From a virus: a DNA stretch of 64,000 bases. Both the position numbers and the translations under genes were made by a program. A model generated the notes under the pieces. It made no database searches and was not told the DNA's origin. It worked only from the letters and a program-made list of their open reading frames with translations. The DNA lies in the IMG/VR virus record IMGVR_UViG_3300049783_001127. One strand, 5' to 3'. Shown piece by piece: positions 8,838-63,472 of the stretch. Positions within the stretch are counted from its first letter, which is position 1; every line of letters starts with the position of its first letter.

Positions 8838-10352
8838 CTAAAATTCAAAGTTAGGCGACTCCAGTGTTGCTTTGTTTGAATCATTATCAAATTCTCCGTT
8901 TGGCTGTAATGTACCTTCAATAACTAAAGGTTCATCAACAACGGGTTCTTTACTTACTTCTTTCTCTGCTTCACTCACAGGTTGAACTTCAGACAATGCA
9001 ACTTGATCTTCTAAAGGAATAGCTTCTACTATGGGTGTTCCCAAAAGTTCCTCTGAATTCTGCTCTGCTGGGATGCCATCTGTTCCATTCTGTGATGGTC
9101 TCTTCTCATCTGATTCCTTCTCATCTGCTCCACTTGTGATTGAGCTCTCTTGTCTGTTCTCAAGGGTTGGATTGGCCGAGAGAAGATGTTCTTCCACGGT
9201 GCTAGTAACACTAAGAGGAGCTGGTTCAACAACCACTTCAGGTTCTTGGATGGCTTTGGTATCTTCAACTTCTTCTTGCTGACCTTCTGCTCCATCTTGC
9301 TTAGTTCCACTATATTCATCTTTTGCTGGATTAGTTGACATTGGTAAATCTTCAGGTGGAAGCGGAAACTCAGAAGGCTCATAGTTCTCTAATGAGAATA
9401 TAGGAGTCTCATCTACAGGTTCCGGAACTGAAACCTCTTCTGGCTCAGCTGCTTCTACTAAACTTTCAGCTTGAATGTTAACATTCTCTTTAACAGCATG
9501 TTTATAATCTGTTAAACTTAATATTTCAGGTTTTTCATTTAATTCAACAGTTTCAATAATCTCAGGCTCAGATTTTAATCCGTCATGATCATTAAGAGTT
9601 GAAATTGATGATTCAATCTGACTGATTATATTTGTTTGAGCTGGATCAGATAGAGGAGCTACTTGCACGTATTGATCTATCAAAAGCTTAGACACAGAGG
9701 TTTGTTGTTTAAACCATGCTTTAGGATGAGATGACTTAAATGTTTCAGCTACTGCTAACCACATATTCCAGACAGTGCTTGTTAGCATTATCTTATCAGC
9801 ATTCTTAATTATAATAAGCTGTGAGCTAGTAATAGCATCCTTGAAAAAGAATGTTCCCATCATCTTCTCATAGTCATCTCCACTTATGATAGATCTTTTC
9901 AATTTGTCACGTATAATAATAAAATCCTTATAGTTATTGAGGCCTTCATCAATTCTTTCATCTAAGTACTCAATAGTATGGTTTAACAAATCTGTACTAT
10001 TTCTTCTGAATGCTTTAGATTCAGTTTCAATAAATAGATCTGTACCACTAGCCATGTTGTAACCACCCATTTCACAACGGAAACCTGTTGTCTTATCATA
10101 CGAATTAATCCATGTAAGCATCATCCCATCCGCAATATCTGCAGTAGGATGATTCAGGTGCAATACACCTTGTACAATTTCTTTATTTACACTAATACGG
10201 TATTCTTCTACTCCTATTCCAAATCCTTTAGCAAGAAGTTGTGTAATAATAAGATCAGCTACCGTTTTATGTTCCAATATTCCTGAATTACCTGGCACAG
10301 GAATCATTTGCAACTGATTTCTATCAGCTGTAATATCAATATTCTTTGGCAT
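8838..10352 (-). CDS. Hypothetical protein with a long acidic, P/E/S-rich disordered C-terminal region
   Basis: 504 aa. A globular N-terminal ~300 aa is followed by a low-complexity acidic tail (PEPVDETP..., EE/PE repeats). Confidence 0.6.
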   Translation of the reverse strand: MPKNIDITADRNQLQMIPVPGNSGILEHKTVADLIITQLLAKGFGIGVEEYRISVNKEIVQGVLHLNHPTADIADGMMLTWINSYDKTTGFRCEMGGYNMASGTDLFIETESKAFRRNSTDLLNHTIEYLDERIDEGLNNYKDFIIIRDKLKRSIISGDDYEKMMGTFFFKDAITSSQLIIIKNADKIMLTSTVWNMWLAVAETFKSSHPKAWFKQQTSVSKLLIDQYVQVAPLSDPAQTNIISQIESSISTLNDHDGLKSEPEIIETVELNEKPEILSLTDYKHAVKENVNIQAESLVEAAEPEEVSVPEPVDETPIFSLENYEPSEFPLPPEDLPMSTNPAKDEYSGTKQDGAEGQQEEVEDTKAIQEPEVVVEPAPLSVTSTVEEHLLSANPTLENRQESSITSGADEKESDEKRPSQNGTDGIPAEQNSEELLGTPIVEAIPLEDQVALSEVQPVSEAEKEVSKEPVVDEPLVIEGTLQPNGEFDNDSNKATLESPNFEF

Positions 10353-16767: not shown

Positions 16768-17978
16768 TATTTTGTAACCATTTTAACCACTTCAGGGTTC
16801 ATCATCAACTTCTCAAATTTCTTCTTGTCTCCGTTGAGGATTTCTCTTACTGCATAATACTTAAGGTCATTACCAAACATTTCCTTAGTAGTAAGCATAG
16901 TGATTCTGTCAATAACCTTTTGATCAACTGCATTTTCTTTTGCATATACAAGAGCGTAGTTAGCAAAACGTGTACATAATACACTTGCTATATCAGCTCT
17001 ATAGTTGTGATCAATTCCGATTGCCTCTTTAAGAAGTCTTTCAACTTTCTCATCAGACTTTTCAGTAAGCATCACTTCTGGTGATACCAACTTATCCAGT
17101 TTATTGTTAATGAATTGTGTGAACATAAGCGCAAACTCAGGTCCAACAGATCCTTCTCCAATCATTTGGATCATAGGTAGGTTGTTTTCAAACACATCAA
17201 AACTAGAGATAGCATTGAAGAAAGTTGTAATACTTCTTGCATTAGTCTCCTGACCTACTAGCTCAGGGTGTAACATTAAGAAGTTAATACATCTACCGTC
17301 AATATTAGCAGACTCTGCCCATTTACCCCAAGCTTTAACATCAAACTTAAGATTCACCGAGATGAATCTAGTTTTCTGAGCTGAGTCAATAGACTGAACC
17401 ATGTAATCTCCATTGTCAGGATTGGCTGTTAACACAATGTGCCAGTTCTTAGGTAACTTCCAAGAGATGTACTCCTGTCTATCAACTAATTCCATTACAG
17501 CTTGGATGAATCTTACATCCGCTCTGTTCCAGTCATCCAACAATAAGATTCCACCTTCTCCTTTTCCTGCAATCCACTCTGGTGGACAATAGCCCATTTG
17601 AGATCTACCTGTAGGACTATAACCTTTTTCTTTGTATGAGTCAACAATCATCTCATCAGCCCATTTCATGGTCCACTTTCCTTTATCAGGTCCTTCTTCT
17701 GTGTTTTGTTTGACCATTTCAAACTGTCTAACAGGATAACCAACAAGGTCACCAAGCTCTTCAATCTGTGCTAAGTTCAACTTAACATAACCCATGTTGT
17801 TGTTTGCTGCTATTTGCAACATTGTACTTGTTTTACCAATACCAGACTCTCCTACAACTTCTACAGCAACAGAAGGTTTCCCTTCTGCCTGTAGCTTTTT
17901 GTTGGTGCTGATGATGTGGTCTAAGAACCCTGACATTTCAGGGATATTTAACTCTACTTGTTTAATTTTTGTAGCCAT
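16767..17978 (-). CDS. AAA+ ATPase, MoxR/CobS-like (AAA_5 family)
   Basis: Walker A GESGIGKTS, Walker B ILLLDDWNRAD. Directly followed by a VWA protein, the classic CobS/CobT-type pairing. Confidence 0.65.
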   Translation of the reverse strand: MATKIKQVELNIPEMSGFLDHIISTNKKLQAEGKPSVAVEVVGESGIGKTSTMLQIAANNNMGYVKLNLAQIEELGDLVGYPVRQFEMVKQNTEEGPDKGKWTMKWADEMIVDSYKEKGYSPTGRSQMGYCPPEWIAGKGEGGILLLDDWNRADVRFIQAVMELVDRQEYISWKLPKNWHIVLTANPDNGDYMVQSIDSAQKTRFISVNLKFDVKAWGKWAESANIDGRCINFLMLHPELVGQETNARSITTFFNAISSFDVFENNLPMIQMIGEGSVGPEFALMFTQFINNKLDKLVSPEVMLTEKSDEKVERLLKEAIGIDHNYRADIASVLCTRFANYALVYAKENAVDQKVIDRITMLTTKEMFGNDLKYYAVREILNGDKKKFEKLMMNPEVVKMVTK

Positions 17979-19474
17979 TATAATGTTAATTTTTCAATTG
18001 ATTCTTTACTATACATAGTAAGTTCTGCATTTTGTTCACCCACATGTTGACTACCTAAAACACATACATATTTACCATCATTTTTAATACACAAATTTTT
18101 TAGTTCATAATTATCTTGATACAAACATATTGCATTAGTTTTATAAGTAAACTCATTTACTCCAATACTATCTTGTCCATCATTAATAACTAGAATTTCT
18201 GGTTTTTCTTCACGTAAGTCAACATTTAGGTTCATTAGTCTACCTAATTCAATTTCATCATGAATTCTTTTAACCATTCTTCCTACATCAGTTCCACCGC
18301 CGCCAGGCATAGTAGAGAATGTTTGCCAAAACTTAATAGCAGATTCTCTGTCTTTAATATGAGTGAACAGCATTCGGTTCGGATCACCACAGAAATAACT
18401 AAAGAAAACTTCAGCTTCTTCCTTCATTGCATGCTTAAGTCTATCAAGTAAGATAGCCAATACCCATTCTTGTTTTTGTGGACTACTCATACTTCCTGAA
18501 AAATCTAAAATCATAATGATCTTTTGCTTATGTTCCGTTTTGTCAATTGGAACATTTACAGTTAAATTCTTAGTTGCAAGTTTAATTTTAAAATCAGGGA
18601 ATAATCTTTGGTAGAGATCAACATTGAACACTTGAGAATAATCTCTCATCATCTTCTTAGATATCAGTTTAGAGTTTTGTACAACTTTTTCTGTAACTTC
18701 TTTCTCTATTTTAAACTGAGATCCTAAATTTTGAATCAAAGATATTTTGTTCAATATATTCACCTTTTTGAAATCTTGTTTTTTAAAGAAATCCATGTCT
18801 AAGAGTTCATTGTAAATAGGATCCGTAAAGGTTTGATGATCAAAATGCATCTCTTCAAGATCAGCTCTCATGTCTTCAGTAACCCTGTTTTCAGAAGTTT
18901 GACCATCTGATTTACGCTTTTTATTTTTAACAGTAAGCTCATTAAATATGGTCATGGCTTTTTCCAATGGTGTATACCCAGGAACATATTTATCCCAGAG
19001 TGACTCATAAAAAGGAGTTTTGTTATCCCTTTCACTAAGTTGCTCTTCATTCATCTTTGTTTCATCTTGATAGTTAGAATCAATGTAATTCTTATTATCC
19101 ATCATTTTATAAAAAAAGAATCTAGACATTTCCTTTATAAGGTTAATGTTTTCTCTATTTCTCATATTTGATCCCCAAGGGATACGGGATTCTATTTCAT
19201 AAGTCTTAGGTGTGAAGTAAGAATCTGGATTAGTTACAAATAACTCATCATTGTCCTCTTCTAATTCACCAATTCCTCCATAACTACCCCAGTTCCATTT
19301 AGATCCATAGTTACTTCCATAACTACCTCCATAACTACTTCCATAGCCATCTTTTTTGTAAGTGCTTTTATAACCACTTCCTGCAGTGCCATAAGAGCGG
19401 CCATAGCCGGAGTTTCCTCCGGCATTGGCTTTCTTATCTGACTTCTTATTTTTTTTCTTATATCCAATTTTCAT
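17978..19474 (-). CDS. VWA-domain protein (CobT-like) with a G/S/Y-rich low-complexity N-terminus
   Basis: MIDAS motif MILDFSGSMSS (DxSxS). N-terminal 70 aa are KKK plus (GYGS/SYG) repeats. Confidence 0.6.
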   Translation of the reverse strand: MKIGYKKKNKKSDKKANAGGNSGYGRSYGTAGSGYKSTYKKDGYGSSYGGSYGSNYGSKWNWGSYGGIGELEEDNDELFVTNPDSYFTPKTYEIESRIPWGSNMRNRENINLIKEMSRFFFYKMMDNKNYIDSNYQDETKMNEEQLSERDNKTPFYESLWDKYVPGYTPLEKAMTIFNELTVKNKKRKSDGQTSENRVTEDMRADLEEMHFDHQTFTDPIYNELLDMDFFKKQDFKKVNILNKISLIQNLGSQFKIEKEVTEKVVQNSKLISKKMMRDYSQVFNVDLYQRLFPDFKIKLATKNLTVNVPIDKTEHKQKIIMILDFSGSMSSPQKQEWVLAILLDRLKHAMKEEAEVFFSYFCGDPNRMLFTHIKDRESAIKFWQTFSTMPGGGGTDVGRMVKRIHDEIELGRLMNLNVDLREEKPEILVINDGQDSIGVNEFTYKTNAICLYQDNYELKNLCIKNDGKYVCVLGSQHVGEQNAELTMYSKESIEKLTL

Positions 19475-30959: not shown

Positions 30960-31497
30960 CTTTTCTAGCTTCTATCATTATGGAGCATAAGACAGAGTCT
31001 TCTTTTCCACCTTCCAGCATCATTTGCATTCCTGCAGTCTCCTCTTTAGTGAATATATCATACTCGTCATAAGCATCTAACCAGAATCTGCAGTAACCTG
31101 CTTTCTGATCACCAACTGCTTGAAATCTTGTATGAGAACCACTTTGAACAAACTCAAAATTACCTATAAGCTTTCCGTTTAACATAGTTCCAGTAGAAAA
31201 GATGTCTGTGATTTCAGCTGCCTGGATTTGTATGAATGCTAGTCCTTTTCCTGTTTCTATTCCTATATAGAAGTAGAAACTAGAACCTTCTCTAGCATCA
31301 AGTATTTTAATGGAGCTGAACTGATTCTTAGTTTCAATAACCTGCCCTCCATTTTCTATAAACTTGATATTAACAGGAGTTGCTTTCTTTAAAGCATCTC
31401 TAACTACAGCCTCATACTTTACACCATAACTTTGATGATAAGGATGAGGTTTCTTACAGTAGAACTTTACGTTCTCTATTTTTTTATCACTTGTCAT
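30922..31497 (-). CDS. Hypothetical protein
   Basis: 191-aa ORF. Confidence 0.45.
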   Translation of the reverse strand: MTSDKKIENVKFYCKKPHPYHQSYGVKYEAVVRDALKKATPVNIKFIENGGQVIETKNQFSSIKILDAREGSSFYFYIGIETGKGLAFIQIQAAEITDIFSTGTMLNGKLIGNFEFVQSGSHTRFQAVGDQKAGYCRFWLDAYDEYDIFTKEETAGMQMMLEGGKEDSVLCSIMIEARKGDYYKAMFGNGS

Positions 31498-32591
31498 TAC
31501 TTGTCAAGTCTAAATCCAACACATACCGGAAACCTTGGAATGCCGTCATCACTAAATTCAAAGAACCTTGTTTCAGACATCTGTTTACCAATGTAGTCTT
31601 CCTTGTTTTCTAAGATCTCTTCACGCTCTTTGTGTGAGAACTTCATTCCACATCCAAAAGTTCTACCATCTGGTAGTTTACAGTGTACTACACCTTGTTT
31701 TGGATTCTTGTCTGAAGGTACAACATCTACTACATCATACACCTCATCAATGAAGTCCTTGTATTTAAGTAGTTGGTTAGCTCTTTTATTGAGTTTATAA
31801 CCATCATCTCCATGTCTAATGATAGAACCTTCATATCCGGCAGCTAAATTAGCTGAGTGGAATTCAGCAATTTGTGCTTCGGATCCTATTCTATCACATG
31901 ATACTAATAGCAATATAGGATTATTAGCTATCTTAACAACTAAGTTAAGAGATCTGTATCTTTCCACATAAGGCGTATCTTCAACTGTATCATACATGTG
32001 TAAACATACATCTTCAGTCTCACCCTCTCTGTACTTCTTGATCAATTTCATATTCTCTTGAAATGTTTGACCATGAGCATAAAGTTCACCATCTAATACA
32101 GTAGATTGGATTCCAGGAATAGCTTCAATAGCGTCAATAATATGCTGACATGTATCAATAACCTTTCCTTTTCTAGAGTATAACTCACATTTACCATCAG
32201 TTACAATAGCAAAGCATCTCATACCATCTAGTTTAGGCTGAATAAATACATTCTTAGCCCAATCAATTCTTTTAATGTCCCATGGTTTAGCAAGCATAGG
32301 TAGCATAACTATATTAGCTTTAGCTTCTTCAATAGTATCAAAATATCCTGTAGACATCTTGTTTACTACTAAGCTCTCAGCTTCAGATTGCGCTTGTTCT
32401 TGTGGAGTGGTTTCATTAGAACGGCCAACATTCTTTGCAGTGGCTGTACTTCTGTGTTCTACTTTCTTTCCATCTAATAAACCAGACTCTTGTATAAGTT
32501 CTGGTCCTTCTGTGTATACATGTAGAATTCTTACCTTACCAGCAGAGTCCAACTTATATACCTTTCTTGAATACTCTTCAGTTTCAGTCAT
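31497..32591 (-). CDS. ATP-dependent DNA ligase
   Basis: Motif I KLDGMR (KxDGxR), motif III DGELY, motif IV EGSIIR, motif V LLKYK. Confidence 0.8.
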   Translation of the reverse strand: MTETEEYSRKVYKLDSAGKVRILHVYTEGPELIQESGLLDGKKVEHRSTATAKNVGRSNETTPQEQAQSEAESLVVNKMSTGYFDTIEEAKANIVMLPMLAKPWDIKRIDWAKNVFIQPKLDGMRCFAIVTDGKCELYSRKGKVIDTCQHIIDAIEAIPGIQSTVLDGELYAHGQTFQENMKLIKKYREGETEDVCLHMYDTVEDTPYVERYRSLNLVVKIANNPILLLVSCDRIGSEAQIAEFHSANLAAGYEGSIIRHGDDGYKLNKRANQLLKYKDFIDEVYDVVDVVPSDKNPKQGVVHCKLPDGRTFGCGMKFSHKEREEILENKEDYIGKQMSETRFFEFSDDGIPRFPVCVGFRLDK

Positions 32592-32593
32592 AA

Positions 32594-32884
32594 TTATTTG
32601 AATTTAGGTAATCCTACTATTTTAAGTAAGAATAATACCTCATGTTTATATTTAAGTGAATTGCTTATTGTTGTATCATCCCTATCCCAACCCTTTGCTC
32701 CTGATTCGTTTTTTGTTACATAGGATTTTTCATATAAAAATGCATACCAGTGATGAGTACCATCTATATGCAACCCATTATAGGCAATAATTAAATCTTT
32801 TTTATATTCAGCATCATCACATATTATGAATGTACGTCCTAATATTTCTTTCAACCACTCATCAGTAATTATCTCCTTTAGCAT
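32594..32884 (-). CDS. Small hypothetical protein (tandem paralog A)
   Basis: N-terminus ITDEWLKEILG resembles ITNEWLLKHCD of the next ORF. Confidence 0.45.
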   Translation of the reverse strand: MLKEIITDEWLKEILGRTFIICDDAEYKKDLIIAYNGLHIDGTHHWYAFLYEKSYVTKNESGAKGWDRDDTTISNSLKYKHEVLFLLKIVGLPKFK

Positions 32885-33188
32885 CTTTAAATTTATTTGG
32901 ATCTCCGCCTAATATACACCAGAGTGTAATTAAATCTTCTCTGTATTTAAAATAATTTAATAATACAGTATCATGTTCTTCTTCAGTTTTTGGATTGTAC
33001 TCACTAGCCCATACTGTGTGTGACTGTTCATGATTGGAACCATAGCTTTCTGTAATGTCTAAACAATGTAGGATACTATCAGAATTAACACCTCTATAAA
33101 AAAATCTTTTATAATGCTTAGTATCTAAAGTATCACAATGCTTTAACAACCATTCATTAGTAATTGGTGTTTTAATCATAGTAGTCAA
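32862..33188 (-). CDS. Small hypothetical protein (tandem paralog B)
   Basis: See previous entry. Confidence 0.45.
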   Translation of the reverse strand: MTTMIKTPITNEWLLKHCDTLDTKHYKRFFYRGVNSDSILHCLDITESYGSNHEQSHTVWASEYNPKTEEEHDTVLLNYFKYREDLITLWCILGGDPNKFKDAKGDNY

Positions 33189-33216
33189 ATAAAAGGGAGC
33201 CCACTAAGAGCCCCCT
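33187..33216 (-). terminator. Rho-independent terminator (minus-strand RNA) downstream of the flotillin-like gene
   Basis: In the minus-strand RNA, GGGGGCUC-uuagu-GGGCUCCC pairs using G-U wobbles, followed by UUUUAUUU. Confidence 0.5.
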
Positions 33217-33223
33217 TTATTAA

Positions 33224-34723
33224 TTAATCTTCTGGATCCAATTTTGGTGTATTTGACAATGCATTTTCAGCACTTCCCAGATTTCTCAATAAAGACATAA
33301 GACCTTGACCTTCTTCAGTCTGTCCTAATGACTCCATCAATCCATTTAACTGAGCTCCTCCTTTTGAAGAGAATATATCAGAGATTTTGCTCATTCCTGA
33401 TTCAACATCTCCACTGTTAACTAACAGTTTAAGATCTGCACCATTCATAGCTTTAGCAAGTTCAGAATATTGAACTTTACCTACTTCTCCAGCTACTTCA
33501 ACTCCTTTTAAACGGATCAAGTAGTTTTGATACTCAATGTTTTCACCTACTTTATCTGCTAATTCTACTTGAGCTACAACTGATGCAAGACCAGATGCTT
33601 TCTCACCTTCAGCACTTGCAAGACCTTTAGCCTCGATTACCTTAGCTTGAGCAGTACCTTCAGCATCAATAACAGATGCATTAGCAATACCTACTTCTTT
33701 AATACCTTCAGCTACTCTCTTTTGTTTAGAAAGTTGAGCCTCTGCATCAATTTCAATACGGTACTTTTCAGCATCAGCAGCAATTATAGTTTGCTCTTTT
33801 CTTTGATTCTGAGCTACAATAGCAGCATCTTTATCAATTTCTGCTTGCTGAATTGTACCAACACGAATCACTTTCATTTCTTCTGCTTTAGAAGATTGTG
33901 CAGATACAGCAATAGCTCCTAAAGATTCTTGTTCAGCAATTCCAGATTCCTTCAAAGCTCCAGCATCTGCGATACCTACAGCCTTACGAGATTCTGCTAG
34001 TGCTTGACCTGATTCTCTTTCAGTATCAGCTGTCTTCACAGCTACTTTCTTACGAGACTCAAGCTCAGCTTCTTCAGCTTCCTGGTGGTTTCTGGCTACT
34101 TCTACACGAGATTCTTTCTCAATCTCAGATTTTCTCTTAGCCATGATTTGATAGATAACTTTTTCACCTTCTTCATCACGAACATCCATAAGCTCAATGC
34201 TCTTAACAGCAGTAACTCCCCAATGTGTAAGGTCAGCTGCAACAGCATTAGTAAATTCTTTACCAAACTTAGATCTTTCTTCCATGATTTGTTCTAAATC
34301 AGAATTAGCTAAAATTGATCTTACAGCACCTCTTACAATGTCTAGTAATTGCTCTTGTAGATCTTCAAAAGATGCAATCTTATTGGCAGCAGTATTAGTA
34401 TCTTCAATATGGAAGAATGCTTTAATATCTACAACAAAAGGAACACGCTTAATATCATAAGCTGAGTAACTTTTAAGTTCTATATCAAAGTTAGATACTG
34501 GTAATTCTCTTACTATAATACCTAAACTTGGTATCCATGCCGGAAACTTATAATAGACATTTGATCTCTTGCCTACCCCATAAGAAACAGTCTTGTTTCC
34601 TCTTTGAACAATGTGCACCATGTTTGGCGGTACAATACGTCTTAATGTTAAAACCCACAAAAAAGACAATAGCAAAACCAGTGAAGGAACTGCAATAATT
34701 AGGTTGTTAATTAACCACTCCAT
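33224..34723 (-). CDS. SPFH/Band-7 family protein, flotillin-like
   Basis: N-terminal TM helix, then an SPFH domain, then a long A/E-rich (EA-repeat) coiled coil as in flotillins (FloT/YuaG-like). Confidence 0.7.
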   Translation of the reverse strand: MEWLINNLIIAVPSLVLLLSFLWVLTLRRIVPPNMVHIVQRGNKTVSYGVGKRSNVYYKFPAWIPSLGIIVRELPVSNFDIELKSYSAYDIKRVPFVVDIKAFFHIEDTNTAANKIASFEDLQEQLLDIVRGAVRSILANSDLEQIMEERSKFGKEFTNAVAADLTHWGVTAVKSIELMDVRDEEGEKVIYQIMAKRKSEIEKESRVEVARNHQEAEEAELESRKKVAVKTADTERESGQALAESRKAVGIADAGALKESGIAEQESLGAIAVSAQSSKAEEMKVIRVGTIQQAEIDKDAAIVAQNQRKEQTIIAADAEKYRIEIDAEAQLSKQKRVAEGIKEVGIANASVIDAEGTAQAKVIEAKGLASAEGEKASGLASVVAQVELADKVGENIEYQNYLIRLKGVEVAGEVGKVQYSELAKAMNGADLKLLVNSGDVESGMSKISDIFSSKGGAQLNGLMESLGQTEEGQGLMSLLRNLGSAENALSNTPKLDPED

Positions 34724-34758
34724 AATAATAAAAAATTAAATTAGTAAATACATGAGCT

Positions 34759-35007
34759 TTATTGCTCAGCTTCTTTTGGCCATTCATCACTCCTGCCATT
34801 TCTTCTGTCTTCCTCTCCTTTGGAGTCATCTGAGTCTGTTGTTATATTAAATAAAGCCATCATCCCCATAATACCCACAAACCACATTATAAACAATATT
34901 GGAGGAGTATACCATTCAAATGTTTCTTTTAACAGTTCATTAGTAGAGTAAAATAACCCAAAGAATATTAATAAACTTACTAGAATTAATAGAAATTTTC
35001 TTTTCAT
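34759..35007 (-). CDS. Small two-TM membrane protein upstream of the flotillin-like gene (NfeD/YuaF-like position)
   Basis: 82 aa with two hydrophobic helices and an acidic tail. Same transcription unit as the flotillin-like gene. Confidence 0.5.
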   Translation of the reverse strand: MKRKFLLILVSLLIFFGLFYSTNELLKETFEWYTPPILFIMWFVGIMGMMALFNITTDSDDSKGEEDRRNGRSDEWPKEAEQ

Positions 35008-35025
35008 ATTTTCAATGTTAATTCA

Positions 35026-35050
35026 TAAAAAAGGAGCCCACTAGGGGCTC
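35026..35050 (-). terminator. Rho-independent terminator (minus-strand RNA)
   Basis: GGAGCCC-actag-GGGCTCC hairpin preceded by an A-run on the plus strand (a U-run after the hairpin in the minus RNA). Confidence 0.6.
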
Positions 35051-35058
35051 CCATAATT

Positions 35059-35196
35059 CTACTTTGCTTGTTTGAAGTAAACTTCAGCAGAGATAATACC
35101 TCTTACAAACTTTGAGAGTGGCGTCACACGAGCCTCTCTTTTCTTCTTAGAACGGCCTGCAGTTCTGCACCCGCCTCCTTTAGCTTTTGTAGCCAT
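35059..35196 (-). CDS. Unannotated small basic protein (45 aa): MATKAKGGGCRTAGRSKKKREARVTPLSKFVRGIISAEVYFKQAK
   Basis: Manual translation of the minus strand. Not in the ORF track (under 60 aa). Sits directly upstream of its own intrinsic terminator. Confidence 0.4.
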   Translation of the reverse strand: MATKAKGGGCRTAGRSKKKREARVTPLSKFVRGIISAEVYFKQAK

Positions 35197-35288
35197 GATT
35201 CTGTATTTTTAGTTACATCCTCATAGCTACCTCCTTTCTTTTTTTCATAGTCTTACAAATATAGTGAATAATTGTATATCTTTACATC

Positions 35289-35609
35289 ATGAGCAATCCA
35301 ACAACAGAAACACAACATGTCATTCCTTTAGAAGAAAAAGTTAACATAGAAGTATCCGGTTATTTTTACAGACAGGTTATGACAAGTTATTTTAATGTTA
35401 CTAGCCTTATTGGGTCAGTTAAGACTGAAGAATTATGCAAGGCTTTAGCGGATAACACTGTTAAATCTCTTCCAGAGGAAGATCAGACACTTGCTGTTAC
35501 TATTCATACATTTTTAGCTTTATTAAAAACTATAGAAGATGAGTTTAAAACTTCTAAATCTATAATTAAGGAAGATATTGAGCTACCTACCGAAGATTCA
35601 GAGTCATAG
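35289..35609 (+). CDS. Hypothetical protein (single plus-strand gene in the minus block)
   Basis: 106-aa ORF, acidic. Confidence 0.4.
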   Translation: MSNPTTETQHVIPLEEKVNIEVSGYFYRQVMTSYFNVTSLIGSVKTEELCKALADNTVKSLPEEDQTLAVTIHTFLALLKTIEDEFKTSKSIIKEDIELPTEDSES

Positions 35610-35982
35610 TATCTCCAAGTTCTATACAGGCCTGAATGGCCAAGTTTAGGTCATCTCTGGAACAATCTCCAAAAGACTTCCAATCCATATACTCTTTATC
35701 TAGTACATTTCTTCTTACTACTAAACCAGCACGATCTTTAATAACCATTTTGATATCATCAAAAGTGTTACCTGATTGGTTTGCTATCACTCTAATGCAT
35801 TTATGCACTTTAGCTAGCTGTGATAAAGTACCATCTCCAGAATTAATTTCCATAAAGAAATCTAACACTATACCTTGATCCAGTATTTTTACAAATTCTT
35901 TATAACGTACTTCATCTCCACTCTTTACATGTATAAGTCTATCACCACTCTTCTTAAGTGATGAGCTGAACATTCCATCCAT
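35587..35982 (-). CDS. Hypothetical protein
   Basis: 131-aa ORF. Start overlaps the upstream stop (GAATAATGG). Confidence 0.45.
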   Translation of the reverse strand: MDGMFSSSLKKSGDRLIHVKSGDEVRYKEFVKILDQGIVLDFFMEINSGDGTLSQLAKVHKCIRVIANQSGNTFDDIKMVIKDRAGLVVRRNVLDKEYMDWKSFGDCSRDDLNLAIQACIELGDTMTLNLR

Positions 35983-36212
35983 TATTCTAAAAATTTAAAA
36001 GAGCCTGTTAATACCTTGGTTATATGTTTATGAGCTGATTTACATTCTGATTCAGTATAAAACATCCAAAACCAAATTGAGCCTTTATCATCTTTATACT
36101 CAATTTGCCATTGACCTGGTGTATTAGGCATCTGTATAAAGGTAGGATCTTTAATACCATCAACTTTATCAGAATTATACAGAGTATCATTTACTTTAAA
36201 CCATTTGGCCAT
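35982..36212 (-). CDS. Hypothetical protein
   Basis: 76 aa, ends KFLE*. Confidence 0.4.
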   Translation of the reverse strand: MAKWFKVNDTLYNSDKVDGIKDPTFIQMPNTPGQWQIEYKDDKGSIWFWMFYTESECKSAHKHITKVLTGSFKFLE

Positions 36213-57449: not shown

Positions 57450-59009
57450 ATGTATATAGAAATTAATATTTATAATATGAGAAATGATAGCATTAACTGG
57501 ACATGGCTTATAGAAACAGGCCGTATTCAGGAAGCAACAGCAGATGAAGATTATATATTAGTAGGATCTTTTGATACTACTAAGAAGACATCTAGTACTG
57601 CAAATAGAACAAGAGAGTACATGATTAAGGTTTCAGATTTCTTGGCAAACGTAGCCCCCGGAGCAGAAGCTTGGACATCTTTAACAGATACTCCTGGAAC
57701 TATTACAGCAGACCAAATGGTTGTTGGAAATGCTTTAGGTACTGGTTTAGAGTTTGCGCCAGTTCCTGTTACTGAAAACACTTGGGAAGTCCCTACAGTA
57801 GCATTTGTAAACCCTGATCCTGCGATTGGAAATGATGGTACAGCTGTAATTGGAGATGGAAATAAGCCGTATCGAACTATTGCAGCAGCACATGCAGCTT
57901 CTAATATAATATTCTTTCAGCCCTACAATAATTACACCGAAGCTTTTGCACCAGGTACAGGGAAAACGTACTTCTCTTATCCAGGCGTTATTTTCACTTC
58001 TGGAGGAATAAATAGTACAGGTGCCACTTTGGTAGGTACTAAATTCTTGGGCTATGCTAAATTCTTAGGGAATCAAAGATTAATATATTTAGACAATGCA
58101 ACTCTTACAGATGTTGTTATAGAATTTGACAGTGCTGAAACTACAGCTGGAGCAGGAAACGGATGTGTGAGAATTGACTGTGATAACCCTAGCACATTAA
58201 CTTTTAAATGTAATAGTCTTAAAGATATTTATAATGGAAATGCATTCGGAGCCTTATTTAAAGGTCCAATATCAGGAACATTAGATGTAGCGGATAGTAT
58301 TATAGGTTCTTATGGTGTTTTGGAATTAGGTTTCTCGGGAGAATACTTGAGGAATTTCACTGTTAATTGTCCTAGAATAGTTTGTCTTGATGGAGGGGCA
58401 GCAGGAAACAATGCATCGTTTAAACAGGCTATTAAATACGGAGGAACCGAAGCCGGATATAAAACCACAATAAATGGAAACATTTACCATGAAACAGTAG
58501 GGACTTTAGCTTCTGTATCAGGATGTGTTGTAGCTCAATATGCAGGAGGAGGTACATTAGAGATTAACGGAAGTATTGAAGGAGGGGACCAAAGAGGTAT
58601 TGTTAATTTTTCCACTGATAAAATTATCCTAAACGGTGGGGGCATTGAAACTGTCGCTGCTTCTTTCTTTGTTACTAATGGGGAGCTTGTAATTAAGGAT
58701 TCCACAATAGTCCAGGGAATAGCAAACAGTATAACTGGATCTCCGAAAGTATGGATTTATGGGTCTACTATCAACTCCACTACAACGGCAAACATAATTG
58801 ATCACTTGAGTGGGACATCTCAATTAGTAATTAGAGACACTGACGCTCAAGGAAGCACAGGAGAGTTTGTAAATACAGGTGGTGCTGCAAACAAAGTAGG
58901 GATGACAAATGTTGTATCTAACTTAGCAAATGACGTAAGTATGGGAAGTTTATACTCTGCGCTTGGGTTCACTCAAGACGATGCATTGGTAACACCTGAC
59001 TCAATTTAA
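57450..59009 (+). CDS. Beta-helix-type tail fibre/tailspike-like protein
   Basis: 519 aa, rich in G/N/T/S. Repetitive short beta-strand segments (NGGGIETVAASFFVTNGELVIKDSTIVQGIANSITGS...) typical of right-handed beta-helix receptor-binding proteins. Confidence 0.45.
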   Translation: MYIEINIYNMRNDSINWTWLIETGRIQEATADEDYILVGSFDTTKKTSSTANRTREYMIKVSDFLANVAPGAEAWTSLTDTPGTITADQMVVGNALGTGLEFAPVPVTENTWEVPTVAFVNPDPAIGNDGTAVIGDGNKPYRTIAAAHAASNIIFFQPYNNYTEAFAPGTGKTYFSYPGVIFTSGGINSTGATLVGTKFLGYAKFLGNQRLIYLDNATLTDVVIEFDSAETTAGAGNGCVRIDCDNPSTLTFKCNSLKDIYNGNAFGALFKGPISGTLDVADSIIGSYGVLELGFSGEYLRNFTVNCPRIVCLDGGAAGNNASFKQAIKYGGTEAGYKTTINGNIYHETVGTLASVSGCVVAQYAGGGTLEINGSIEGGDQRGIVNFSTDKIILNGGGIETVAASFFVTNGELVIKDSTIVQGIANSITGSPKVWIYGSTINSTTTANIIDHLSGTSQLVIRDTDAQGSTGEFVNTGGAANKVGMTNVVSNLANDVSMGSLYSALGFTQDDALVTPDSI

Positions 59010-60747: not shown

Positions 60748-60820
60748 GGAGGTATAGCAAAGATGGACTATGCGGGGGTTTGAAGAACCTTAGATCCAAG
60801 ATCGTTACTTGGTGCCTCCA
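60748..60820 (+). tRNA. tRNA-like element / probable pseudo-tRNA (73 nt, aberrant anticodon arm)
   Basis: Acceptor GGAGGTA/TGCCTCC and T-arm CCAAG-ATCGTTA-CTTGG are present, but the anticodon stem is poor. Confidence 0.3.
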
Positions 60821-60825
60821 CACAT

Positions 60826-60896
60826 GGGATGGATTATGGTGATAGCCGGGACTGTAAATCCCTAGCAGGTTGGTTCGAGTCCAGCGCATCCCACCA
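60826..60896 (+). tRNA. tRNA (anticodon read as GTA, Tyr?; atypical short form)
   Basis: T-arm GTTGG-TTCGAGT-CCAGC. Acceptor GGGATGG/GCATCCC, discriminator A plus an encoded CCA. D-arm irregular. Confidence 0.4.
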
Positions 60897-60901
60897 ATTA
60901 T

Positions 60902-60985
60902 AGAGGGCATCCGGCTGGATGAGGAGCTGATCTTGAAAATCAGTAGCACTGAAAGGTGTTTAGAGTTCGAGTCTCTAGCCCTCTA
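60902..60985 (+). tRNA. tRNA-Ser(TGA), class II
   Basis: Acceptor AGAGGGC/GCCCTCT, anticodon stem CTGAT/ATCAG with loop CTTGAAA, long variable arm, T-arm TAGAG-TTCGAGT-CTCTA. Confidence 0.65.
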
Positions 60986-60990
60986 CATAC

Positions 60991-61059
60991 GCGTCTCAGG
61001 CCGGGGTGGCCAAACGGATTCCAAACCCGTAGGGCAGAGTTCAACTCTTTGGGGGCGCG
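60991..61059 (+). tRNA. tRNA (anticodon read as CCA, Trp?)
   Basis: Acceptor GCGTCTC/GGGGCGC (two G-U pairs), anticodon loop TTCCAAA, T-arm CAGAG-TTCAACT-CTTTG. Confidence 0.4.
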
Positions 61060-61064
61060 CAAAT

Positions 61065-61135
61065 GGTACCATGAGTGAGTGGCTAACTGCCGGTCTGCAA
61101 AACCGGTTACGCTGGTTCAAATCCAGCTGGTACCT
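61065..61135 (+). tRNA. tRNA-Cys(GCA)
   Basis: Acceptor GGTACCA/TGGTACC, anticodon stem CCGGT/ACCGG with loop CTGCAAA, T-arm GCTGG-TTCAAAT-CCAGC. Confidence 0.7.
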
Positions 61136-61227
61136 CAAACAGAGAGAGAACCTACCTGGGTAGGCTGCCCCTGCTAAGGGCATGGGTGTGAAAGCACTGG
61201 GGATCAAGGCCTCCTCTCTCTACAAAT

Positions 61228-61309
61228 GCCTTTGTGGTGGAATTGGGAGACACAGCGGTCTTAGAAGCCGTGGCTGAAATGCATGAGAGTTCGAGTCTCT
61301 CCAGAGGTA
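61228..61309 (+). tRNA. tRNA-Leu(TAG), class II
   Basis: Acceptor GCCTTTG/CAGAGGT (G-U pairs), anticodon loop CTTAGAA, long variable arm, T-arm GAGAG-TTCGAGT-CTCTC. Confidence 0.5.
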
Positions 61310-61320
61310 CAATAACAAAT

Positions 61321-61393
61321 GCCCCCGTAGCTCAACTGCTAGAGCAACGCTCTTCTACAGCGTGGGTTAGAGGTTGGAATCCTCTCGGGGGTA
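61321..61393 (+). tRNA. tRNA-Arg(TCT)
   Basis: Acceptor GCCCCCG/CGGGGGT, D-stem GCTC/GAGC, anticodon stem ACGCT/AGCGT with loop CTTCTAC. Confidence 0.7.
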
Positions 61394-61401
61394 CTATACA
61401 A

Positions 61402-61474
61402 GGGGAAGTAGCTCAACAGCTAGAGCACTTGGCTACGAACTAAGAGGTTATGAGTTGGACTCTCATCTTTCCCT
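61402..61474 (+). tRNA. tRNA-Arg(ACG)
   Basis: Acceptor GGGGAAG/CTTTCCC, D-stem GCTC/GAGC, anticodon loop CTACGAA. Confidence 0.65.
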
Positions 61475-61479
61475 CTACT

Positions 61480-61563
61480 GCTCCAGTGGTGGAAATGGCT
61501 ATACACGACAGGCTTAAGACCTGTTGCCTTTAAGGATTGGGGGTTCGAATCCCTCCTGGAGTA
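61480..61563 (+). tRNA. tRNA-Leu(TAA), class II
   Basis: Acceptor GCTCCAG/CTGGAGT, anticodon stem ACAGG/CCTGT with loop CTTAAGA, long variable arm, T-arm GGGGG-TTCGAAT-CCCTC. Followed by a T-run. Confidence 0.65.
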
Positions 61564-61764
61564 CTTTTTTTAAAAATAATTGCTAATTAATTTGGTAGTT
61601 AAGAAACTATGCCTATATTTGCTTTAATAAACACTTAGAAACAGCATGTACAAGATACAACATATGGCGCCCGCAACGGCAATTACTAATCAGGTAGAAG
61701 GGAAAGATCCCAGCTGCCCGGAGAAGTCATATATGTAACTTAGTAACTACTAACTATACATTAA

Positions 61765-61793
61765 GCTCTCCGGGAAACCAGAGGGCTTTTTTT
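61765..61793 (+). terminator. Intrinsic terminator with a GNRA (GAAA) tetraloop inside the tRNA cluster
   Basis: GCTCTCCGG-gaaa-CCAGAGGGC followed by TTTTTTT. Confidence 0.6.
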
Positions 61794-61806
61794 ATGCCCG
61801 ATATAT

Positions 61807-61879
61807 CTAGATGTATATCAGTTGGTAGATGGCCTGCTTTGGGAGCAGGAGGCCGGGGGTTCGAGTCCCTCCATCTAGA
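61807..61879 (+). tRNA. tRNA-Pro(TGG)
   Basis: Acceptor CTAGATG/CATCTAG, anticodon stem CCTGC/GCAGG with loop TTTGGGA, T-loop TTCGAGT. Confidence 0.65.
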
Positions 61880-61893
61880 CTAAAAAATAACTA

Positions 61894-62054
61894 TGGATGA
61901 ATTAAGAGCAGAAATTGCAGAATTAGAAAGTACGTTAACAGGAGACATGTTTCAAGATATGGAGATAAAAGATAAAATCCATAATCTAAACATGAAACTA
62001 ACTGGGACAAAACCAACAGATAGTCACTTTGACTGTGTAGGATGTGGTAGTTAA
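61894..62054 (+). CDS. Small ORF (53 aa, MDELRAEIAELESTLTGDMFQDM...CVGCGS) inside the tRNA array
   Basis: ATG-started ORF filling the gap between tRNA-Pro and tRNA-Ala. Not in the track (under 60 aa). Confidence 0.3.
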
Positions 62055-62061
62055 AACAAAT

Positions 62062-62134
62062 GGGGAAGTAGCTCAAATGGATGAGCATCTGCCTTGCACG
62101 CAGAAGGATGAGGGTTCAACTCCCTTCTTCTCCA
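62062..62134 (+). tRNA. tRNA-Ala(TGC)
   Basis: Acceptor GGGGAAG/CTTCTCC, D-stem GCTC/GAGC, anticodon stem TCTGC/GCAGA with loop CTTGCAC, T-loop TTCAACT. Confidence 0.7.
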
Positions 62135-62167
62135 CAAATACAGACTTGGAAATCTGTATTATGCACA

Positions 62168-62240
62168 AGCGCGCTGTAGCTTAATGCTAAAGCATCTGCC
62201 TTCCAAGCAGAGGACGGAGTTGGATTCTCACGGTGCGCTC
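62168..62240 (+). tRNA. tRNA-Gly(TCC)-like (irregular T-stem; possibly degenerate)
   Basis: Anticodon stem TCTGC/GCAGA with loop CTTCCAA. The T-stem needs a bulged nucleotide. Confidence 0.4.
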
Positions 62241-62249
62241 AATTAATAT

Positions 62250-62325
62250 GGTCTATGGGGCTGCTTGGTGTGGCCACTCCCCTGTCACGGGAGATATCAG
62301 ATGGGTTCAAATCCCATATGGACCG
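62250..62325 (+). tRNA. tRNA-Asp(GTC)
   Basis: Acceptor GGTCTAT/ATGGACC, anticodon stem CTCCC/GGGAG with loop CTGTCAC, T-arm ATGGG-TTCAAAT-CCCAT. Confidence 0.65.
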
Positions 62326-62392
62326 CAGAGAGAGAGATGCAGGTAATCCTGCCCGACAGGTGGTGTAATTAACATACTCTCTATTAAATTAT

Positions 62393-62463
62393 GCCTCATA
62401 AGCTTTAAGGTGAAGCTCTTGACTGTTAATCAAAGGAAGGTGGCTCAATCCCATCATGAGGCG
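62393..62463 (+). tRNA. tRNA-Asn(GTT)
   Basis: Acceptor GCCTCAT/ATGAGGC, D-stem GCTT/AAGC, anticodon loop CTGTTAA. Confidence 0.55.
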
Positions 62464-62469
62464 CAAAAC

Positions 62470-62543
62470 AGGTGTATAGCTCAATTGGTTAGAGCACTTC
62501 GCTGATACCGAAGAGGTTATAGGTTCAATTCCTATTATACCTA
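62470..62543 (+). tRNA. tRNA-Ile(GAT)
   Basis: D-arm GCTC-AATTGGTT-AGAGC, anticodon stem CTTCG/CGAAG with loop CTGATAC, T-arm ATAGG-TTCAATT-CCTAT. Confidence 0.7.
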
Positions 62544-62554
62544 CAATATAAAAT

Positions 62555-62628
62555 AGGAGTATAGCTCAGGGGTTTAGAGCACTTCCCTTACAAGGAATAG
62601 GTCCGGGGTTCAAATCCCTGTACTCCTA
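62555..62628 (+). tRNA. tRNA-Val(TAC)
   Basis: Acceptor AGGAGTA/TACTCCT, D-stem GCTC/GAGC, anticodon loop CTTACAA, T-arm CGGGG-TTCAAAT-CCCTG. Confidence 0.6.
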
Positions 62629-62677
62629 CAGAAGAAAAAAGTATTATGAAAAAGAAGATAAAGATATTGAAACACTT

Positions 62678-62750
62678 AGTCCCCTAGCTCAACGGTTAGA
62701 GCATCACTCTTATAAGGTGAAGGTTATCAGTTCAATTCTGATGGGGGCTA
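62678..62750 (+). tRNA. tRNA with anticodon TAT (Ile-UAU type, AUA decoder)
   Basis: Acceptor AGTCCCC/GGGGGCT, D-stem GCTC/GAGC, anticodon stem TCACT/GGTGA with loop CTTATAA. Confidence 0.55.
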
Positions 62751-62759
62751 CAACAACAA

Positions 62760-62831
62760 GCCCCCTTAGCTCAATGGCGGAGCCACCGGCTTTTAACCGG
62801 TAGGACATTGGATCAGTACCAATAGGGGGTA
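62760..62831 (+). tRNA. tRNA-Lys(TTT)
   Basis: Acceptor GCCCCCT/AGGGGGT, anticodon stem ACCGG/CCGGT with loop CTTTTAA, T-stem ATTGG/CCAAT. Confidence 0.65.
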
Positions 62832-62842
62832 CAAAAATATAT

Positions 62843-62916
62843 AGCGGGATGGGAAGTAATTGGTAACTCCTTGGTCTCATAAGCCAACGTTCCGGGTTCA
62901 AGTCCCGGTTCCGCTA
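62843..62916 (+). tRNA. tRNA-Met(CAT) (Met/fMet/Ile2 type undetermined)
   Basis: Acceptor AGCGGGA/TTCCGCT, anticodon stem TTGGT/GCCAA with loop CTCATAA, T-arm CCGGG-TTCAAGT-CCCGG. Confidence 0.6.
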
Positions 62917-62990
62917 CCAACTAGTAAAGTTAAACACAATGAGAGTAGATTCAGACATATCAGAAGTAGAAGAAGGAGAAGAGACAATAT

Positions 62991-63063
62991 GCTCCGTTCT
63001 TCTAACTGGTCAGGAAACCACACTTTCAATGTGGCAACACGGGTTCGAGCCCCGTACGGAGTA
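62991..63063 (+). tRNA. tRNA-Glu(TTC)
   Basis: Acceptor GCTCCGT/ACGGAGT, anticodon stem CCACA/TGTGG with loop CTTTCAA, T-arm ACGGG-TTCGAGC-CCCGT. Confidence 0.65.
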
Positions 63064-63110
63064 CCATCAGAGTACGCTACATCTGTTCTAGGTGTAGCAC
63101 CACAATTCAA

Positions 63111-63183
63111 GCTTCTAAAACATTTAATGGATGATGTCTGCTCTTGTAAAGCAGGGAACTAGGTTCGATTCCTAGTGGGAGCT
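63111..63183 (+). tRNA. tRNA-Thr(TGT)
   Basis: Acceptor GCTTCTA/TGGGAGC (G-U pairs), anticodon stem CTGCT/AGCAG with loop CTTGTAA, T-arm CTAGG-TTCGATT-CCTAG. Confidence 0.55.
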
Positions 63184-63191
63184 CTATATCT

Positions 63192-63266
63192 TGCCCGGTA
63201 GACAAAGTAGGCAAAGTCACCACACTTTGAATGTGGAATTTGTAGGTTCGAGGCCTGCCCGGGCAA
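63192..63266 (+). tRNA. tRNA-Gln(TTG)
   Basis: Acceptor TGCCCGG/CCGGGCA, anticodon stem CCACA/TGTGG with loop CTTTGAA, T-loop TTCGAGG. Confidence 0.6.
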
Positions 63267-63268
63267 CT

Positions 63269-63338
63269 GTGTTATTAGCTTATTGGTAAAGTGCTAGACT
63301 GTGAATCTAGAGAAGAGGGTTCGATTCCCCATAACACC
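63269..63338 (+). tRNA. tRNA-His(GTG)
   Basis: Acceptor GTGTTAT/ATAACAC, anticodon stem CTAGA/TCTAG with loop CTGTGAA, T-loop TTCGATT. Confidence 0.55.
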
Positions 63339-63472
63339 CCATTTAATTTGTTAGTCTTAAAGTTTTTCGCTATATTATAGTATGATAGTATTTGTAGGAG
63401 TAGGTATTGTATTAATTGCTTGCTACCACATAAAAAACTATTTTACAAAAGACTAGATTAAAACATAAATAT

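Follow-up and report, generated by a model that had tools for sequence, protein, structure and literature searches.

A flotillin-like SPFH protein and a small two-transmembrane ORFan partner in a probable accessory cassette of a large uncultured phage

The window analysed here is the whole 64,000-nucleotide stretch of IMG/VR virus record IMGVR_UViG_3300049783_001127, and the subject is a pair of minus-strand genes within it, the first encoding an 82-residue protein with two transmembrane (TM) segments and the second a 499-residue flotillin-like protein of the SPFH superfamily (Table 1). A sequence-only reading of this DNA had described the pair as a phage-encoded operon bracketed by intrinsic terminators, and both open reading frames (ORFs) were recovered where it had placed them. 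The window comes from a large phage, since it encodes PHROG families for GroEL, DNA polymerase, ATP-dependent DNA ligase, helicase, HNH endonuclease and an ATPase, together with 20 tRNA genes. Taken as a whole, the interpretation developed below is of an accessory two-gene cassette whose larger product would form a flotillin-like dome, with the smaller product as its client or adaptor and with a role in host takeover, and this composite is given an even chance of being right.

Table 1. Features of the flotillin locus and of the surrounding window
Feature	Coordinates	Strand	Basis or description
Flotillin-like SPFH protein, 499 aa	33224-34723	minus	ORF, Pfam, PDB profile, Foldseek
Layout of the 499-aa protein			hydrophobic helix ~2-26, SPFH ~28-180, A/E-rich helices 184-430, conserved C-terminal region 430-472 (residues)
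Two-TM hairpin protein, 82 aa	34759-35007	minus	ORF, hydropathy, conservation
Intergenic spacer, 35 nt	34724-34758	minus	A/T-rich; similar in L010 and L005
Downstream terminator-like hairpin	33185-33217	minus	AAGGGGGCTC-TTAGT-GGGCTCCCTT + TTATTT
Upstream terminator-like hairpin	35026-35052	minus	GGGAGCCC-CTAGT-GGGCTCC + TTTTTT
Basic ORF or leader, 45 aa	35059-35196	minus	flanked by the divergent intergenic region 35197-35288 on one side and the upstream terminator on the other
GroEL-type chaperonin, 542 aa	5773-7401	minus	PHROG 5725, E=3.9e-170
tRNA array	60748-63341	plus	20 densely packed tRNA genes (ARAGORN)

The 499-residue product is almost certainly a flotillin-type SPFH protein. A profile check of the SPFH/Band-7 domain seen by the sequence-only reading returned Pfam Band_7 (PF01145) over residues 30-212, covering profile positions 2-174 of 176 with E=1.4e-16 and 61.5 bits, a score beyond the gathering cut-off of 23.6 that places the protein in the SPFH superfamily. 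In a single-sequence search of the PDB, matches were obtained to QmcA and to human flotillin-1/2, and a profile built from 25 family members aligned with human flotillin-1 over residues 44-342 (E=1e-11), a stretch that comprises both the SPFH domain and the coiled-coil flotillin domain. Similarly, the top PDB match in Foldseek was the flotillin complex 9bq2_A (E=1.3e-10, 434 columns, ~19% identity), so that flotillin-1/2 is the best solved-structure match both by sequence and by fold. Ranks 2-31 were occupied entirely by cage-forming SPFH assemblies (stomatin, HflK/C, erlin, QmcA-YbbJ and prohibitin), followed beyond rank 31 by SPFH-domain crystal structures and major vault protein; the SPFH core superposes on stomatin SPFH crystal structures at ~2 Å over 107 residues, with a template-modelling score of ~0.8.

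The order of elements along the protein is likewise that of a flotillin. An AlphaFold2 monomer model, used for secondary structure and fold class only, predicts a helix at residues 2-26, a beta/alpha SPFH domain at 28-180 and four long helices at 184-275, 286-347, 352-392 and 396-430. The N-terminal membrane-attachment segment is formed by residues 4-26, which are hydrophobic with 30% Leu and are followed by an invariant L-R-R; the predicted helix, also noted in the earlier reading, may span the membrane or form a hairpin. Besides L-R-R, P13 and many C-terminal positions within residues 430-472 are invariant across the 25-sequence family alignment. Residues 185-400 contain 33% Ala+Glu with an 11-residue periodicity, for which "EA-repeat coiled coil" had been a fair description, and the long A/E-rich helices that follow the SPFH domain in the flotillin family are thus found in the profile, in the composition and in the predicted helices at 184-430. 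No PHROG match, and thus no structural family, was found for this protein, and its identity as a tape-measure or other structural coiled-coil protein is ruled out by the Band_7, flotillin-profile and Foldseek matches, in line with the preference expressed from the letters alone. An orthologue (equivalog) of FloT was also ruled out, the protein being a relative only. The GC content of the gene is 37%, as against 35% in the window.

The protein encoded immediately upstream is hydrophobic over residues 5-23 and 37-55, the two segments that had been recognised before. Its charges are distributed as +3 at the N-terminus, -2 in the loop and -5 in the 27-residue tail, a pattern that predicts an N-in/C-in topology with both ends in the cytoplasm. 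The acidic C-terminal tail is conserved in an alignment with relatives (KGEEDRRxGRSDEWPxEAEQ). The gene lies directly upstream of the flotillin gene in four related contigs, here called L005, L006, L010 and L092 in a numbered series of flotillin loci, whose flotillins are 91% (L010), 84% (L092) and 74% (L005 and L006) identical to that of the window. The ratio of nonsynonymous to synonymous substitution rates (dN/dS) among relatives is 0.14-0.33, which indicates purifying selection that acts more strongly on the tail than on the TM part; because of this ratio and the conservation upstream of flotillin in the four contigs, the ORF is regarded as a real gene. In L005 the pair is kept though both flanks differ, with NAD-salvage genes downstream there as against small ORFs and a ligase gene in the window.

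Homologues of the 82-residue protein are rare. They amount to three clusters in 5.8 billion proteins, and a HMMER profile search of 1.84 billion representatives gave two clusters, both of close relatives; the protein is, by this sequence evidence, an ORFan restricted to the closest relatives of the window phage. Among the upstream neighbours of flotillin in GenBank phages, at 33 loci of metagenome-assembled genomes (MAGs) and at 38 IMG/VR loci, neither a homologue of it nor an NfeD protein was seen, and the clustering of all neighbours within 4 kb revealed no small membrane protein shared by other flotillin phages. Since the partner is absent from the other flotillin loci examined, it appears to be a recent, lineage-specific addition. 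A scan of PHROG gave one weak match, to a family of unknown function and over the first 22 residues only, and no holin or other family was found in Pfam, PHROG or NCBIfam.

It was the NfeD-like character of the small protein, proposed from its position, that did not hold. Neither Pfam nor NCBIfam gave an NfeD match at E<=1, a comparison with E. coli YqiJ showed no similarity, and the 27 residues that follow the second TM segment are judged too few for the oligonucleotide/oligosaccharide-binding (OB) fold of NfeD proteins, which is therefore lacking. What remains is a positional analogy only, namely that of a membrane protein encoded 35 nt upstream of, and co-oriented with, an SPFH gene.

Both sides of the pair carry intrinsic terminators, as had been claimed. 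The upstream hairpin (35052-35032 followed by T6) has a folding energy of -15.3 kcal/mol (z=-2.4) and was found by both terminator scans; the downstream hairpin (33217-33193 followed by TTTTATTT), which lies directly after the flotillin stop codon, reaches -17.7 kcal/mol (z=-3.05) and was missed by the first scan but recovered by a separate scan with a uniform criterion. Under that criterion, the minus strand of the 64 kb holds 12 terminator sites, two of which stand exactly at the boundaries of the pair. The downstream terminator is kept after flotillin in L010, L005 and L092; the upstream hairpin is absent in L010, where a divergent gene abuts instead, and in L005 its place is taken by an unrelated hairpin. 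Moreover, the two hairpins have in common an 11-mer, TAGTGGGCTCC, made up of the loop and the 3' arm (33196-33206 and 35033-35043, minus strand). No further copy of TAGTGGGCTCC occurs in the window, and a genome-wide repeated terminator motif was accordingly rejected; the shared 11-mer, together with the lack of the 45-residue ORF in L010, suggests a local duplication or insertion.

Between the two genes, the fold of 34725-34800 is no better than that of shuffled sequences (z=0.23), so that the spacer holds no terminator. Three observations lead us to infer an operon, namely the 35-nt spacing, an intergenic region free of hairpins and a pairing that relatives have kept. The flotillin gene lies among, and on the same strand as, the genes for DNA ligase, helicase and DNA polymerase, and early or middle expression may be expected because the cassette is situated among replication genes. 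The pair has its own downstream terminator and is surrounded in L005 by other genes than those around it in the window and in L010, and the patchy spread of the flotillin family over unrelated large phages, described below, also counts for accessory status; the pair is therefore most likely an accessory cassette, moron-like in being terminator-delimited.

Upstream of the cassette, the putatively coding 45-residue ORF is called as a gene in contigs with identical flotillin, is absent from L010 and has no match in Pfam, PHROG or NCBIfam; it may be part of the transcript that enters the pair. Rfam found nothing above noise over 34950-35350, with neither a riboswitch nor a known RNA. Promoter-like sites across the region number 37 and are no more frequent than in shuffled sequences (31.4 +/- 5.8), as counted with a sigma-70-like consensus that may not be the host's. 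The motif TTATGAWTWAA, which resembles sequences after the L005 terminators, was dropped as a promoter candidate, as it occurs once in the window, just as chance predicts. At 35197-35260 on the minus strand, a strong Shine-Dalgarno-like sequence, AAAGGAGG, precedes a mini-ORF of three codons (ATG AGG ATG TAA). The flotillin and 82-residue ORFs are themselves without a Shine-Dalgarno-like sequence.

Homologues of the flotillin were found by tblastn in 53 of 50,697 GenBank phage records, with 43-57% identity over >90% of the length. These records comprise Brevundimonas and Xanthomonas phages, Ralstonia phage RP13, ~37 T5-like Vibrio phages (Thalassavirus) and the uncultured 635-kb phage LR745206.1, whose homologue is 57% identical. 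The earlier statement that such proteins are not standard phage equipment is thus right as to frequency, but the family is already annotated, as "flotillin protein" in the Brevundimonas jumbo phages (vB_BpoS-Bambus, Marchewka and relatives) and as "SPFH domain-containing protein" in Xanthomonas phages X1 and BUDD. Phage SPFH proteins are also mentioned in genome papers, where their role is called unclear (PMC7760394, PMC13239085, PMC13384950). Phage flotillins are therefore already known, and what the locus adds is a new lineage and a small ORFan partner. In IMG/VR, 38 loci with homologues were found; their contigs measure 5-517 kb and mostly exceed 50 kb. A large protein database yielded >1,600 homologues, with >100 clusters at 55-59% identity, and the four clusters of this class that were examined lie on phage-like contigs of ~104-635 kb. 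In the scan of genome contigs for homologues, a single-protein query gave none, whereas an alignment-based query worked.

The cellular members of the clade belong to Treponema, Fibrobacteria, Chitinispirillales, Verrucomicrobia and gut Alphaproteobacteria MAGs, and are 41-52% identical over the full length. In a neighbour-joining tree, the window clade is nested in a large clade of phage contigs, with chromosomal copies (Treponema and other MAGs) as sisters and further phage clades deeper, and the family thus appears to be patchily spread over unrelated large phages. The cellular copies adjoin Era, RNase J, YicC or an HpnE-like gene. The last of these lies upstream of a ~44% identical flotillin in L027, L038, L039 and L043, all from gut Alphaproteobacteria MAGs, and its product is a homologue of the flavin adenine dinucleotide-dependent hydroxysqualene dehydroxylase at 191 bits, below the 283-bit cut-off; the arrangement may point to some connection of flotillin with squalene or hopanoid lipids in these bacteria. 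L011, a contig binned as a Hyphomicrobium MAG, carries a flotillin nearly identical to those of the phage-like L044-L046 and L050, which include a 246-kb IMG/VR contig, and is probably a mis-binned phage.

Among known systems, the nearest likeness is to the flotillin-1/flotillin-2 complex (PDB 9BQ2, 9L3G), which shows the same order of membrane-associated N-terminus, SPFH domain, A/E-rich helices and C-terminal region and forms a 44-mer membrane-attached dome (PMC13000311). The phage protein differs in being encoded by a single gene, so that a homo-oligomer rather than a hetero-oligomer is predicted, and in the 23-residue hydrophobic helix with an invariant proline at its N-terminus. The GenBank phage flotillins form one family and one tree with it and are found in large lytic phages among accessory genes, but none has the 82-residue partner upstream. 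FloT of B. subtilis and YqiK of E. coli, with the NfeD-type proteins YuaF and YqiJ, resemble the cassette in architecture and in the SPFH gene that follows a gene for a small membrane protein; they differ in the low scores given below and in the upstream protein, which in the window is not NfeD. QmcA-YbbJ (PDB 8Z5G) and HflK/C-FtsH (PDB 7WI3, 7VHQ, 9CZ2) share the SPFH fold and offer a model for a cage that encloses a partner or client membrane patch; however, QmcA and HflK/C are shorter and without the long flotillin domain, and the phage cassette encodes nothing that corresponds to their partners, which are an NfeD OB-fold protein and the FtsH protease. The cellular members of the flotillin clade are stand-alone genes without NfeD upstream, and differ in being chromosomal, while the phage copies form large clades of their own.

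From these comparisons, a mechanism can be proposed in which the N-terminal hydrophobic helix would anchor the 499-residue protein in the host inner membrane, with the SPFH domain and the A/E-rich helices facing the cytoplasm; the SPFH domain is placed on this side because the invariant L-R-R after the hydrophobic helix follows the positive-inside rule. The protein would then assemble into a closed dome of many subunits on the cytoplasmic face of the inner membrane, thereby fencing a membrane patch, and such an assembly is considered fairly probable because of the homology with flotillin-1/2, HflK/C, QmcA, stomatin, erlin and prohibitin. The 82-residue hairpin, with both ends cytoplasmic and its acidic tail on the side of the scaffold, would most likely serve the dome, inside it or at its edge, as a client or adaptor, a role made plausible by the conserved tail that would face the scaffold's side; it would then be a functional analogue of NfeD and not a homologue. 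During infection, the dome would reorganise or stabilise the host membrane or sequester membrane proteins. The sequence-only reading had offered as candidate roles a membrane-associated replication or assembly site and the manipulation of host defence or proteases. A host-takeover or auxiliary function is preferred to a part in the virion because of the accessory nature of the cassette and its place among replication genes, but as an account of the biological role it is still rated unlikely.

Several observations weigh against this interpretation. As to the scaffold, NCBIfam FloT (NF058507) aligns to residues 74-392 with only 58.8 bits against a cut-off of 700; no Pfam family besides Band_7, and so no separate flotillin-domain model, matched at E<=1; and the similarity to E. 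coli YqiK, with 27% identity over 177 residues and E=1e-4, is marginal. The AlphaFold2 monomer has a mean predicted local distance difference test (pLDDT) score of 59.8 and a predicted template-modelling (pTM) score of 0.33, and its helix geometry is unreliable. As to the partner, most phage and bacterial homologues of the flotillin are without it, so the scaffold does not depend on it, and its interaction with the scaffold, which we infer purely from the arrangement set out above, is put forward tentatively, at somewhat less than even chances. As to expression, the gap from the upstream terminator to the 82-residue start codon is only 24 nt long, and no sigma-70-like site was found in it, the consensus being possibly not that of the host's promoter type; therefore, transcription would either continue across the hairpin or begin at a kind of promoter that was not recognised. 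The earlier claim of an operon is accordingly kept as probable. Furthermore, a literature search found no functional study of any phage flotillin, and some Erwinia jumbo phages have yielded SPFH proteins when their virion preparations were analysed by mass spectrometry (PMC7760394, PMC6034870), although these proteins may belong to other SPFH subfamilies.

Two alternatives to the host-takeover cassette survive best, and both are clearly improbable, more so than the proposed role itself. In the first, the dome would serve counter-defence or membrane protection, in that it fences or neutralises membrane-targeting abortive-infection effectors, or delays holin triggering when nicotinamide adenine dinucleotide (NAD+) or the proton-motive force is drained by a defence system, alongside NAD+-reconstitution genes. 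It draws on the neighbourhoods of the homologues, which were counted after the loci had been collapsed to 34 phage and 13 bacterial or MAG lineages. The most recurrent neighbour within 4 kb is an Adps-like homologue of phosphoribosyl pyrophosphate (PRPP) synthetase, and Namat/Nampt homologues recur too. A gene like those of the NAD+-reconstitution pathways (NARP; Adps/PRPP-synthetase-like, Namat/Nampt or Nmnat) lies within 0.5 kb in 5 of the 34 phage lineages and within 8 kb in 7, as against none of the 13 bacterial/MAG lineages. Loci with such neighbours are L005 (6565-9349), L048 (8605-9495), L057, L059, L069, L071 and L001 (5827-8400), and in Brevundimonas phage Bambus the NMNAT/Nudix and Nampt genes are found one gene downstream of flotillin. 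NARP1 and NARP2 occur in only ~5.4% of phage genomes and counter NAD+-depleting defences, and NAD+ depletion can trigger premature lysis (bioRxiv 10.1101/2024.02.11.579819).

A bacterial flotillin 57% identical to that of the window has also been found in a defence island, in L007 (1-11440) and L009 (GCA_963852545.1, a 1.16-Mb contig). Its neighbours are a phospholipase D (PLD)-domain protein, a helix-turn-helix (HTH) protein and, around it, a type II restriction-modification methyltransferase, PDC-S60 (1241 bits) and a type IIG restriction-modification enzyme. Together, the NAD+ adjacency and the defence-island copy suggest a link to the defence arms race. Against a counter-defence function, no NARP-like gene is present anywhere in the 64-kb window, the five adjacencies amount to about three independent events, as related clades share synteny, and accessory genes of large phages cluster regardless of function. 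Moreover, PADLOC-DB gave no match at E<=1 for the 499-, 82- or 45-residue products, and neither protein of the pair is a homologue of a known anti-defence protein. The broader version, in which phage flotillins would be a widespread counter-defence or lysis-control device that fences abortive-infection effectors or the phage's own holin until progeny are complete, with the NAD+-reconstitution genes as company and the 82-residue protein as a lineage-specific adaptor or client, is held to be slightly less probable again.

The other of the two makes the genes unrelated neighbours, the small one being a holin-like or otherwise independent membrane protein. Two TM segments, an N-in/C-in topology and a charged C-terminal tail constitute the layout of a class II holin, and the 82-residue protein fits all three; the partner is missing from most flotillin-carrying phages, and unrelated small TM ORFs lie near flotillin in some other lineages, such as L053, L083, L047 and L080, small membrane ORFs being common in such regions. 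However, holin tails are usually basic and this one has a net charge of -5, no holin family in PHROG or Pfam was matched, and ten nearby ORFs between 27.5 and 39 kb gave zero matches in Pfam, so that no lysin domain was detected among them. The intactness of the pair in L005, where both flanks differ, and the conserved 35-nt spacer without a terminator also argue for genes that belong together.

Superinfection exclusion or defence against competitors is very unlikely. Here, the scaffold and the small protein would block the entry or replication of other phages' DNA, and the bacterial defence-island copy would be a domesticated form. Known exclusion proteins, T4 Imm and Sp among them, are small and reside in the inner membrane, and the cassette is accessory and terminator-bounded, encodes membrane products and has a place among replication genes that suggests early or middle expression. 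The bacterial homologue in the defence island, identical in L007 and L009 and with differing neighbours in the two, also fits this explanation; it is nevertheless a single case, many cellular homologues lie beside the housekeeping genes named above, and the lack of a PADLOC match applies here too.

A virion-associated or packaged 499-residue protein is more improbable still. The detections in Erwinia particle preparations speak for it, although those proteins may, as said, be of other subfamilies. Crude phage preparations are commonly contaminated by membrane fragments. In the window, the gene lies among replication genes and not in a structural module, and its product has a predicted membrane anchor and no match to a PHROG structural family. 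Lastly, a divergent, minimised NfeD in a canonical NfeD-SPFH operon captured from the host is the least credible explanation, for its upstream, same-strand position, as in E. coli yqiJ-yqiK, and its N-terminal TM helices agree with this, but the failed profile and YqiJ comparisons, the contradiction of the defining feature by the short extramembrane tail, the yield of only two clusters, both of close relatives, from the profile search and the absence of NfeD upstream of the cellular clade members all stand against it.

Returning to the flotillin-like cassette, its wider interest lies in the fact that SPFH/flotillin cages have recently come to be understood structurally as devices that wall off a membrane patch, while the enclosed cargo and the purpose are debated even in cells. 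The presence of flotillin in at least 34 phage lineages of the sample, among them T5-like Vibrio phages, several jumbo phages and a 635-kb megaphage, constitutes a natural experiment, and culturable hosts exist for several of them (Vibrio harveyi/campbellii, Brevundimonas, Xanthomonas and Ralstonia), which makes a knock-out feasible. If the NAD+-gene adjacency or the defence-island copy reflects function, the family would extend the phage-host arms race by a layer at the membrane; if not, it would be one more auxiliary host-like gene of large phages.

As to the phage itself, a megablast of 32500-36000 against the 50,697 phage records gave no DNA match, and the DNA polymerase of the window is ~33% identical to the polymerases of the nearest isolates, by which the window phage is taken to represent a separate uncultured lineage. 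Across the whole window, Rfam returned tRNAs only, one of which, a tRNA-like match at 62393-62463, is additional to the ARAGORN set. A 1501-residue ORF on the plus strand (12-4517) has no PHROG match at E<=1e-5, and three further large ORFs (8838-10352, 17978-19474 and 57450-59009) are likewise without a PHROG match. The ATP-dependent DNA ligase gene of the window occupies 31497-32591; a gene of this kind lies 0.1-2.4 kb downstream of flotillin in L060, L061, L087, L010, L092 and the window, an arrangement that spans several flotillin lineages and extends beyond the window's own clade.

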